Under the pieces are notes generated by a model that saw only the letters and a program-made list of their open reading frames with translations, did no database searches and was not told the DNA's origin. 64,000 nt of DNA, taken from the sequence record OR539220.1. One strand, written 5' to 3'. Each line of letters opens with the position of its first letter. Position 1 is the first letter of the stretch. Shown here piece after piece: positions 10,069 through 49,055 of this stretch. Both the position numbers and the translations under genes were made by a program. The DNA is from Escherichia phage vB-Eco-KMB40.

Positions 10069-10815
10069 TTATCCTCGGATAAGTTTAAAAATTGAACAAT
10101 TTAGCGGATATCCTCTTTTCAGTTTAAGTTTATCAATAAAAGACAAGTTTTGATACCGCTCTACACCTTGAATAATTTTATCACACATATCATATTGCAT
10201 TTCTGCTTCTGACAACTTTTTCACAATTTTCCAATCCGAGCCTTTAAGAAGAACGTTCAATTTAACAACTTCAGCGCCTTCTGCTATGCGAGAACCATCA
10301 ATACGAGCTTTAAGTGCTATAATCCTCAGCTTAATGTCAGAGGTCTGTTTTGATTTAGAAAGCTGAGAAATGTGTTCAATTCGGTTTTCACGTTTTTTCT
10401 GTATAGCTTTAATTTGATTATAAGTCTTTTTGATTTTAGCCCATTTCTTTTCATCTAAATTTAGTTTATGAACTTTTTTCGCAGATGAACGACCAATTCG
10501 CAAAGCAAATAAATCACGCTTTTCAATCAACTCTTCTAAAGTATAATCAGAACGAAATGTATTATACTTTTTCTTTACTGCAATAACATTCCCTTTAATG
10601 TATCCAACGTTATTATCAAAACGTTCTAATGATAATTTCTCTCCTTCAATACGATTATCAAAAGGTTCTCCCGAGTAAGCGCAAACTTTCTGATCTAAAA
10701 TGTTCTTAATGTAATTGAAGTCTAAGTTAAAATCTTTAGAACGTCTTTTTGCAGATGCCTGAGTATGCTCTAGACGACGTTTAATTTTACGAATTTGATT
10801 ATTAGACAGCTTCAT
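10069..10815 (-). CDS. srd: Srd-position protein (248 aa)
   Basis: basic 248-aa ORF between dda.1 and modA; assignment by position and size. Confidence 0.45.
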   Translation of the reverse strand: MKLSNNQIRKIKRRLEHTQASAKRRSKDFNLDFNYIKNILDQKVCAYSGEPFDNRIEGEKLSLERFDNNVGYIKGNVIAVKKKYNTFRSDYTLEELIEKRDLFALRIGRSSAKKVHKLNLDEKKWAKIKKTYNQIKAIQKKRENRIEHISQLSKSKQTSDIKLRIIALKARIDGSRIAEGAEVVKLNVLLKGSDWKIVKKLSEAEMQYDMCDKIIQGVERYQNLSFIDKLKLKRGYPLNCSIFKLIRG

Positions 10816-10851
10816 ATTTTTCTCACATCTTACGGACGGTTAATTACTTAT

Positions 10852-10881
10852 ACTATAACATTTTTACTTTAACTTGTAAAC
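10852..10881 (-). promoter_or_regulatory. early sigma70-type promoter
   Basis: GTTTAC at 10876-10881, TATAGT at 10852-10857; upstream of srd-like ORF. Confidence 0.5.
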
Positions 10882-10894
10882 AACTTTATGTAAA

Positions 10895-10921
10895 AATGCT
10901 TTAAAACTTTCATGGTATAAT
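10895..10921 (+). promoter_or_regulatory. candidate plus-strand middle-type promoter (antisense to modA)
   Basis: plus strand TGCTTTA at 10897-10903, 12-nt spacer, TATAAT at 10916-10921 preceded by TGG. Confidence 0.3.
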
Positions 10922-10938
10922 GAATCTAAGTCCTTCCA

Positions 10939-11541
10939 TTATAGATTAAATCCTTCAAAATCAAGAGTATAGATATTGTATGTTGAACACTTTTTGTACT
11001 CATATCTATCTGCAATTCTAAATACACTTCCAGCTGGTATCATTACTTCTTGTTCATCTGAAACTAATTCCATATTACGATAACGATGACTATCCGGAAA
11101 CTTAAAGTTTGGATTGTATTCTTTACAGCGTAGAGCTTTTATAGCATACTCCTGGAAATTGAATACCATAGGAGCTTTGAATTCAAAAATAACTTGTGTG
11201 TTATACTCTAAACCGGAAGCAAAATGTAGAGCTATATTTTTATCATATGAAGCTGATACTACTTTATCAAATTTAATAATATCAATTCCTTGATTTAATA
11301 CTTGTTTAGTCTCAGCTGGAACACCTCTCCAAAGAGGTTTATCGTTTGGAACCAAACGAGATTTGATTATTTCATTTAACCAAGTATGGTCATCTGGTTT
11401 GTTGGTAATACAATGAATTAAAAGTTCAATTTCAGATAAATTAAACCCTTCAGAAAGTAATTCTTCACGAATAGAAGCACGCACCGATGCATCCATTGAT
11501 TTTATTTTAAAATCTTTTAGTTGCATTACTGAGTATTTCAT
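10939..11541 (-). CDS. modA: ADP-ribosyltransferase ModA (200 aa)
   Basis: 200 aa as T4 ModA; adjacent paralogue; position after srd. Confidence 0.7.
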   Translation of the reverse strand: MKYSVMQLKDFKIKSMDASVRASIREELLSEGFNLSEIELLIHCITNKPDDHTWLNEIIKSRLVPNDKPLWRGVPAETKQVLNQGIDIIKFDKVVSASYDKNIALHFASGLEYNTQVIFEFKAPMVFNFQEYAIKALRCKEYNPNFKFPDSHRYRNMELVSDEQEVMIPAGSVFRIADRYEYKKCSTYNIYTLDFEGFNL

Positions 11542-12161
11542 TCAACTACCTCAATATCATAAACTTTAAATGTTCCAAATGAATCGTGTAATTTTTCTTT
11601 TGAAATAGAAGTTATTCTATACTTTCCAATTGGAATCATCCATTCTTGTTCACGCACAATCATCATTAAGTTATCAGTACGCTCTGAATCTAATCCATCA
11701 GTATCTTCATATGTATACTTAAACTCAGTATTAGGAGAAGAAAGTATAATATCGCTGATATGGTCAGAATAATTAAAAGCTTTATCAGTTTTTAAACGAA
11801 GTATTATTTTAGTAAAATATTCAGCATAAGAAAAAGAACATGCTGTGAGCAAACTAGTAGTAAATGAATCTACTCTGTTCGTTGAAAACACTTCTCCAAC
11901 TTGTAAATCTTTAATAAGTTCTTTTGTCGATTTTGATATACCACGATATAACTGATATGGTGATTTAGTTAAATGCTTTTTAACGATTTTATTCAACTGC
12001 CGATGAAGAGCTTCATTCTTTTTGGCTTCCATACATTGCCAAAGAACAGATTGCTCAAAGTCAGTAAATTTTTCACAGACCTTTTTATACATATCATATT
12101 GAAAATCAACGCTTTCAGCTTTTATAGATAACTGTTCAACATCTGCAAGATTAATAATCAT
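11538..12161 (-). CDS. modB: ADP-ribosyltransferase ModB (207 aa)
   Basis: 207 aa as T4 ModB; SD GGAGG. Confidence 0.7.
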   Translation of the reverse strand: MIINLADVEQLSIKAESVDFQYDMYKKVCEKFTDFEQSVLWQCMEAKKNEALHRQLNKIVKKHLTKSPYQLYRGISKSTKELIKDLQVGEVFSTNRVDSFTTSLLTACSFSYAEYFTKIILRLKTDKAFNYSDHISDIILSSPNTEFKYTYEDTDGLDSERTDNLMMIVREQEWMIPIGKYRITSISKEKLHDSFGTFKVYDIEVVE

Positions 12162-16762: not shown

Positions 16763-17389
16763 TTAACCTCTATTCATAAAAGCATTAAAAATTTGGTCAT
16801 CAATAGAAACATTTACGTTAGACTGTTTTTCAGATGGCAATTCATATCCACATATTACAATTTTATGATCAATATCAAAATACACAGAAGCAATATGATT
16901 AATGATATTTTCAGTGAAGTCTAAATCGACATCAATATCTTTTTGACCACAGCCCAAAGGATAAATAATGCGAGTAATTCGATTATCTTTAACAAATATT
17001 CCACCGACATACTCTGTACTGCGTTTAAAGTCTACACGCCGACGAAATGAAAAATATTCAGGCTCTTTATGAGCTCGGCTCATAGGACACAACGAATAAC
17101 TAGAATAAGAGATGTCAAATCCTACGCCTTCGATATGAGCCAAAGTGTCATGATTAAACCAATTATAATCGTACGCCAAATCCATTAGATTATAATATGT
17201 AAAAGGCACCGGATTAACATCATTAGTCACAAGCATGTAATTAGCAACTGCTATAATTTCATTGTTTTTAACGAATACAAACCGTGATTGATGCGAATGA
17301 CCTGGACCCGCGTTTTCACGATTAATGATATAACACTGGGCACCTTTATATTTGTATGTATCTTTGCACTTGTGCATTTGATAGAGCAT
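16763..17389 (-). CDS. 61.2-position protein (208 aa); possible AdfA homologue
   Basis: 208-aa ORF downstream of primase; name by position and recollection only. Confidence 0.35.
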   Translation of the reverse strand: MLYQMHKCKDTYKYKGAQCYIINRENAGPGHSHQSRFVFVKNNEIIAVANYMLVTNDVNPVPFTYYNLMDLAYDYNWFNHDTLAHIEGVGFDISYSSYSLCPMSRAHKEPEYFSFRRRVDFKRSTEYVGGIFVKDNRITRIIYPLGCGQKDIDVDLDFTENIINHIASVYFDIDHKIVICGYELPSEKQSNVNVSIDDQIFNAFMNRG

Positions 17390-49030: not shown

Positions 49031-49055
49031 ATTATACCATCCTTGGTATAAAGCG
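49031..49055 (-). promoter_or_regulatory. candidate middle promoter (MotA-box-like CGCTTTA, 12-nt spacer, TGGTATAAT)
   Basis: minus strand GCTTTA at 49049-49054, TATAAT at 49031-49036 preceded by TGG. Confidence 0.4.

Follow-up and report, generated by a model that had tools for sequence, protein, structure and literature searches.

The region analysed belongs to the dda - dda.1 - srd - modA - modB block of a Tequatrovirus, in which all genes are placed on the minus strand. The window, by which we mean the whole stretch of 64,000 nucleotides (64 kb) that was analysed, encodes a ModA protein with 98.5% protein identity to T4 ModA (Tequatrovirus T4 record KJ477684.1), and the 401-nt query showed 98.5% identity to T4 and 99.5% to Shigella phage SHFML-26. 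An earlier reading made from the sequence alone had held that the nearby genes are all on the minus strand, and this is true for every ORF of real size (srd, modA and modB). In T4, every annotated coding gene between 1 and 50 kb lies on the strand opposite to the plus-strand element described here, hereafter the antisense element, and according to the T4 annotation there are no plus-strand genes for tens of kb. The genes and the early promoter that surround the element are the following:

10069-10815, minus strand: srd (ORF)
10852-10881, minus strand: early sigma-70 promoter for srd, with a GTTTAC/TTTACA -35 at 10881-10875 and a TGtTATAGT -10 ending at 10852 (promoter scan, TTTACA-17-TATAGT with TG)
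10939-11541, minus strand: modA, encoding the RNA polymerase alpha-subunit ADP-ribosyltransferase, the would-be antisense target (ORF; T4 annotation)
11538-12161, minus strand: modB, encoding an ADP-ribosyltransferase (ORF; T4 annotation)

The records of phages fPS-65 and DalCa annotate predicted minus-strand early promoters for srd at this site. The early promoter of srd and the putative antisense promoter stand back to back, the srd -35 being 13 bp from the MotA box in T4. No promoter features are present at the antisense element in the T4 records.

On the plus strand, just outside the modA stop codon, we found the parts of a putative middle promoter:

10894-10903, plus strand: predicted MotA box AAATGCTTTA, with its centre near -30 relative to the predicted start (scored with the box part of a matrix of 30 mapped T4 middle promoters)
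10904-10915, plus strand: spacer aaactttcatgg of 12 nt from the MotA box to the -10 hexamer, its last three bases being the TGG of the extended -10
10913-10921, plus strand: extended -10 TGGTATAAT, that is, TGn and a perfect sigma-70 TATAAT (read from the sequence)
10922-10930, plus strand: discriminator and start region GAATCTAAG, with the predicted start at A10928 +/-1

This is the plus-strand element that the sequence-only reading had described, with aaaTGCTTTA at 10894-10903 and TATAAT at 10916-10921, and its coordinates were right. The distance of 12 nt that it gave holds from TGCTTTA to TATAAT, which is the usual spacing in middle promoters, but not from TGCTTTA to TGGTATAAT, where it is 9 nt. 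As read from the sequence, AAATGCTTTA is a perfect fit to the MotA-box consensus (a/t)(a/t)(a/t)TGCTT(t/c)A (PMC2988021, PMC1524935). The TATAAT hexamer has TGG directly before it, so that the element shows both the TAnnnT 11-13 bp past the box that marks this class and the TGn that occurs in about half of the known middle promoters. No TTGACA-like hexamer was found 17 bp upstream of TATAAT, where the sequence is AAAATG, and the sigma-70 promoter scan listed no plus-strand promoter at the antisense element. The absence of a sigma-70 -35 hexamer is expected of a MotA-type promoter, as the MotA box takes its place. The mapped T4 middle promoters usually have 6 nt between the -10 and the start, which predicts a start at A10928 (T4 11,896-11,899), 11 nt beyond the modA stop codon. 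Judged by these features, the anatomy of the element is that of a textbook middle promoter, and the element is identical in T4 (AF158101 11866-11890).

The pattern TGCTTTA-N11-13-TATAAT was found three times in the 64-kb window against 0.04 expected, the antisense element being the sole plus-strand case, and the loose pattern TGCTTTA-N11-13-TANNNT ten times against 1.4 expected, with eight of the ten on the minus strand. A weight matrix that comprises the box, the spacer and the extended -10 was built from 30 T4 middle promoters, whose start sites were taken from Hinton 2010 (PMC2988021, Table 1) and whose sequences were taken from AF158101. With this matrix the antisense element scores 21.89 bits, which is the top score of either strand of the window and higher than that of each of the 30 promoters behind the matrix; these mapped T4 promoters score from -0.1 to 20.7 when included in it and from -6.3 to 19.8 when left out in turn. 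Among the top 23 matrix matches the remaining 22 are all on the minus strand, and the next plus-strand match reaches 14.27. The maximum in 2000 first-order Markov strands of 64 kb was 14.8 on average and 20.25 at the highest, and none of the 2000 reached 21.89. The other plus-strand matrix matches are noise and the antisense element is an outlier. As a positive control, the mapped T4 middle promoter Pdda.1, which lies inside srd (-10 at 10175-10183, minus strand), scored 15.4 bits in the window.

Two other matches in the window can be mentioned here. The second-best one, AACCGCTTTA-N12-TGGTATAAT (20.2 bits), is on the minus strand with its -10 at 49031-49039, beyond the T4 1-50 kb stretch that trained the matrix. 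The sole other plus-strand match to the loose pattern, at 2357-2380 (TGCTTTA-N11-TAAATT), falls outside the top 45 matrix matches and is consistent with chance.

The conservation of the element within the genus was examined in 26 Tequatrovirus relatives, including T4, T2, RB10, RB18, six IMG/VR contigs and those most divergent in the mod-srd spacer (to about 90% identity). It is kept in all of them, and 26 of the 27 Tequatrovirus sequences score at least 21.5 bits. TGGTATAAT is unchanged across the genus and so is TGCTT, save in RB18, in which a 1-nt insertion gives TGACTTTA (15.0 bits) with an ACTT core like that of the mapped promoter P46. Substitutions are confined to three spacer positions (10907, 10911 and 10912) and to the t/c position in the box, where 10902 T>C still fits the consensus. 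This conservation would by itself be weak evidence, because the whole 10875-10965 stretch varies little.

A ModA homologue is present in roughly 900 phage genomes. Outside Tequatrovirus almost all ModA homologues have less than 60% identity to the window ModA (25-37% in the sampled ones, and 25-35% in the other lineages that keep the element), and the mod-srd gene order is retained despite this divergence. In five phages the best antisense-strand matrix match of the 5.5-kb locus was found in the mod-srd spacer and in the same orientation, with scores of 18.8 in Dhakavirus AnYang, 15.9 in both Gaprivervirus SP18 and VR26, 14.4 in Kanagawavirus IME523 and 17.2 in Klebsiella phage Roth51. Similar scores were obtained for the orthologue of Pdda.1 inside srd (18.5 in Gaprivervirus, 14.8 in Dhakavirus and 14.7 in Kanagawavirus). 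The element is also present in the Mosigvirus phages ST0 (20.9 bits) and RB69, in lineages named by BLAST as Salmonella STML-198/Melville, Yersinia fHe-Yen9-01/TG1 and Klebsiella Kpn-BM7-like, and in a contig (L049) that we take to be Enterobacter phage CC31-like.

A scan of IMG/VR with ModA as the single query gave six close relatives, and a scan with an Srd alignment gave 43 loci. In 36 of these 43 the element is the top antisense-strand match of the whole 3.7-kb locus, with 14.4-21.9 bits, the best match elsewhere on that strand being mostly about 10 bits and never above 14.5. Six of the remaining seven have less than 13 bits upstream of srd; the seventh (L075), with no Mod gene upstream, has a 16.8-bit match 139 nt before srd, which was left uncounted. 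Altogether, the element is retained across at least nine related phage genera.

For a conservation profile, we took 17 sequences representing at least 10 lineages and anchored them on the -10. GCTTT is invariant in all 17, and TATAAT in every lineage that has the element. The information is concentrated in (T)GCTTT, in TATAAT and the two G-rich bases that precede it, and in a few bases of the start region (two or three), those common to the genera being the G directly after the -10, a T at +4 and a G at +9 after the -10. The spacer is free in sequence and always 12 or 13 nt long in these representatives, and the flanks are unconserved. This pattern is what the evolution of a bipartite promoter, and not that of an RNA hairpin, would be expected to leave.

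The distribution of the element was also compared with that of MotA. The genes motA and asiA lie outside the 64-kb window, and T4, with the identical element, has both. By an iterated pattern search, which may miss some, all complete-genome-sized contigs that bear the element proved to have MotA, three of Gaprivervirus excepted; the same search did not find it on a 102-kb partial contig (L050), where it may have been missed. The Krischvirus (RB49-like) loci keep the mod-srd synteny and the element is absent from them; RB49 has neither a motA gene nor a middle-promoter consensus (Nolan et al. 2006, PMC1524935). Three lineages encode MotA and keep the mod-srd synteny yet are without the element, namely Serratia PS2-like phages (L066), its relative L070 and Erwinia phage Cronus (L073). 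The element is common, not obligatory, among the MotA-encoding lineages. We observed that L066, L070 and L073 have a single Mod protein that is only distantly related to T4 ModA.

Across the loci the predicted start is placed 6-40 nt past the ADP-ribosyltransferase stop codon. The exception is L049, with 109 nt from the mod stop, which we attribute to an incomplete tblastn match. In the Kpn-BM7-like Klebsiella phages (L052, L053 and L064) a gene annotated as dmd (discriminator of mRNA degradation; about 1185-1500) is found between mod and srd, leaving a mod-srd gap of about 318 nt, and the element keeps its place 22 nt from the stop codon of mod. Between the box and the srd -35 there are 7 to 19 nt, depending on the lineage, and the early promoter between mod and srd is missing in the CC31-like, STML-198-like, Yen9-like and Roth51-like phages. 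As its position relative to the mod stop is kept and the srd promoter is variable in distance or absent, the element belongs with the 3' end of mod and not with srd.

If the promoter fires, its transcript is by geometry necessarily complementary to modA from the 3' UTR inward, and it can be set out as follows:

10928-12161, plus strand: predicted antisense RNA, non-coding, that would cover modA and perhaps also modB (from geometry; the end coordinate is simply the far end of modB)

It is possible that modB is a further target, if the antisense RNA exceeds about 600 nt. No conserved intrinsic terminator was found on the antisense strand within 1.4 kb; weak hairpins at 11323-11359 (one of them at 11342-11359) have no counterparts in other genera. 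Neither the 5' end of the antisense RNA nor the sense 3' region has a conserved or significant fold, no Rfam family matches the element or the transcript, and no ORF with a Shine-Dalgarno on the antisense transcript is shared across lineages. We have discarded an RNA element as the explanation, there being no Rfam match, no conserved fold and no shared terminator, and likewise a small protein, as no ORF with a ribosome-binding site is common to the lineages.

The 58 mapped T4 middle promoters (PMC2988021) include no plus-strand 5' end at the antisense element, and in the literature searched in full text neither a mapped plus-strand start nor a modA antisense RNA was found. The orthologous site is present in the supplementary material of Nolan et al. 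2006 (Virol J 3:30, Additional file 4) as RB69 'Pm:12081', on the plus strand between srd and modA (RB69 12081-12122), with the sequence aaaTGCTTTA-N13-TGTTATAAT. It is one line of an HMM table, with a score of 7.9 and the flag '1 bp ins' (PMC1524935), and as that scan of RB69 picked the site independently we count it as support for a promoter. In a term search of the same paper (PMC1524935) 'antisense' occurred 0 times and 'modA' once, and 'Pm:12081' was apparently left uncommented, with no tie to T4 or to other genera. A T4 dRNA-seq study reports 22 antisense start sites, and a T4 dRNA-seq data set is on GEO (GSE255091; 0, 4, 10 and 20 min).

That a middle-promoter-like element points antisense into modA, as had been proposed from the sequence, is strongly supported by its being the best match of the window and by its place and orientation being kept in distant T4-type phages. 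The statistics and the comparative evidence together strongly support reading it as a promoter, and we infer from them its firing, its dependence on MotA and the action of its RNA. On balance, we think that the element is probably a functional MotA/AsiA-dependent (sigma-appropriation) middle promoter, antisense in direction, that acts on mod. The turning down of modA and modB in the middle period, which had been put forward as its possible purpose, is a plausible regulatory role.

The following course of events could then be envisaged. AsiA and MotA would build up at about 1-2 min post-infection, and the host RNA polymerase would then bind the -30 MotA box and the extended -10. Starting near A10928, 11 nt beyond the stop codon of modA, it would transcribe back through modA and possibly modB to give a non-coding RNA. 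This transcription would probably serve to lower the expression of the ADP-ribosyltransferase gene once the early period is over, and it could do so either by head-on collision with polymerases coming from early promoters, including a promoter upstream of modB, or by pairing of the RNA with mod mRNA, leading to cleavage of the duplex or to a block of translation. Both ways would lessen early read-through from modA into srd, and dda.1 and dda would meanwhile keep their own middle promoter, Pdda.1. The TGn motif could permit some firing independent of MotA. More tentatively, and with rather less confidence, we suggest that most MotA-encoding T4-type phages may carry a dedicated, time-gated antisense RNA of this kind, fired by the activator of the middle genes from a promoter just past the toxic ADP-ribosyltransferase gene (modA, or the single mod gene), and that the convergent transcript would switch off this gene and block read-through into srd.

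Some caution comes from what is known of other sites. Stoskiene and co-workers are said to have found in 2007 that some good MotA-box matches yield no transcript. A site may match the consensus well and yet be silent in vivo, and inactive GATT-box sites have been described (Hinton 2010, PMC2988021). ModA is, moreover, non-essential and deletion of modA leaves early shut-off unchanged (PMC2988021), so any phenotype may be subtle.

The promoter might be real and its RNA a by-product, in which case MotA-bound polymerase or converging transcription would insulate srd and dda.1 from modB-modA read-through and RNA pairing would play no part. In T4 such an arrangement may also occlude the early srd promoter, which stands back to back with the element and whose -50 to -58 zone, counted from its start, is overlapped by the plus-strand MotA box. 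The element is located exactly between mod and srd in most lineages, the window has no intrinsic terminator between modA and srd, and in the CC31-like, STML-198-like, Yen9-like and Roth51-like phages, which have no early promoter between the genes, srd must be read through the element. However, in the Kpn-BM7-like phages the element stays by the mod stop though srd follows only after another gene, at a distance of about 318 nt. Occlusion is out as a general role, given the 7-19 nt between the box and the srd -35 and the several lineages that have no srd promoter. We regard insulation as an unlikely principal function, and note that sequence alone cannot separate it from antisense pairing.

It is quite improbable that a MotA-dependent promoter at this place serves a use other than regulation, such as replication priming through an R-loop or the binding of MotA and polymerase with no productive transcript. 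In T4, oriF and oriG consist of a middle promoter and a downstream unwinding element. A comparable use would agree with the fact that over tens of kb the plus strand has no gene to be expressed. Compared with origins of the oriF/oriG type, however, the promoter half alone is seen at the antisense element. What follows the start is ordinary modA coding sequence, and the T4 annotation has a single origin in this region, oriA at 16,763, nearly 5 kb off. That the element is so closely tied, across genera, to the stop codon of one gene family points instead to that gene as the target.

A further explanation is that the conserved sequence serves the minus strand, either as the UP-element region of srd or as a signal for the 3' end, processing or termination of the modB-modA mRNA. 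In T4 the box does occupy about -50 to -58 relative to the early promoter of srd, the zone in which A/T-rich UP elements work, and a NAD-cap study handles modA-modB as a discrete transcript. Yet lineages that have no early promoter next to the element, or in which srd is 318 nt off, retain it all the same, and its -10 half, upstream of -68 relative to the srd promoter, is too far out to be part of any UP element. An UP element of that promoter was rejected as a candidate because the fixed -40 to -60 position is not kept, the spacing being 7-19 nt and the promoter absent in several lineages. As to an mRNA signal, two conserved blocks joined by a spacer that is fixed in length and free in sequence are unlike the evolution of an RNA hairpin or terminator; there is no significant or conserved fold on either strand, no terminator-like site on the minus strand at this place and no Rfam family. 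Moreover, the bases that are conserved coincide exactly with those positions of the middle-promoter matrix that carry the most information. The comparative data have largely refuted a service to the minus strand, which we consider very improbable.

A functionless chance match in A/T-rich intergenic DNA, for which it may be said that about 1.4 loose TGCTTTA-N11-13-TANNNT patterns are expected per window and that a second, weak plus-strand match exists at 2357, is refuted for practical purposes by a score that 2000 random strands did not reach and by retention in many lineages whose flanks cannot be aligned.

Taken as an antisense middle promoter, the element can be compared with known systems. 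With the MotA/AsiA-dependent middle promoters of T4 (PuvsX, PmobB and Pdda.1) it shares the MotA box at about -30, the 12-nt spacer, the sigma-70 -10 with TGn and the lack of a -35 hexamer, and like Pdda.1 it is conserved in other genera. Unlike them, it opposes all annotated coding genes of T4 1-50 kb, has no gene to express and is not among the 58 mapped promoters. A precedent for self-antisense RNA in T4, at another locus, is the antisense transcription of gene 32 (Belin et al. 1987, as cited in PMC2988021 and PMC3014915).

The closest geometry is that of the OOP RNA of phage lambda, whose promoter is placed just past the stop of a regulatory gene and fires back into its 3' end. The OOP RNA is short and terminated, is made from a constitutive promoter of the host type, is antisense to the 3' end of cII and lowers expression through cleavage of the duplex. 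In contrast, the antisense element is predicted to be activator-dependent and time-gated, with no terminator evident. The apparent novelty lies in three things, namely that the element points antisense, that it is tied to the stop codon of mod and that its conservation extends across genera.

It is still an open question how T4 brings its early gene expression to an end. A MotA-driven promoter aimed back at a highly toxic early gene would, if true, be a simple mechanism for one locus and one concrete answer to that question. It would be the first antisense circuit within the T4 early-to-middle switch and would extend the uses of sigma appropriation to antisense control. Since the DNA that holds the element is non-coding, both the box and the -10 are mutable with no change of protein.

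Two minor features of the surrounding genes were observed as well. In the srd 5' UTR there is an 11-mer, CGTCCGTAAGA (about 10823-10833, minus strand), which was also seen in L028, L029, L030, L076, L077 and L032. It is kept in Tequatrovirus, Dhakavirus, Gaprivervirus, Mosigvirus and the Roth51-like Klebsiella phages despite the divergence of the remaining spacer, and in Roth51 it falls within the spacer of the putative antisense promoter.

The second concerns modB, whose Shine-Dalgarno and AUG are inside a strong minus-strand hairpin at 12198-12153 (-20.8 kcal/mol, z = -6.8). An early-type promoter is found here on the minus strand (GTTTAC at 12217-12212 and TATGAT at 12193-12188), and its start would fall in the 5' arm of the hairpin. 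With a start at that position only promoter-proximal transcripts would have an open modB ribosome-binding site, and read-through RNA from upstream would be closed. The T4 genes e, soc and 49 use the same logic.
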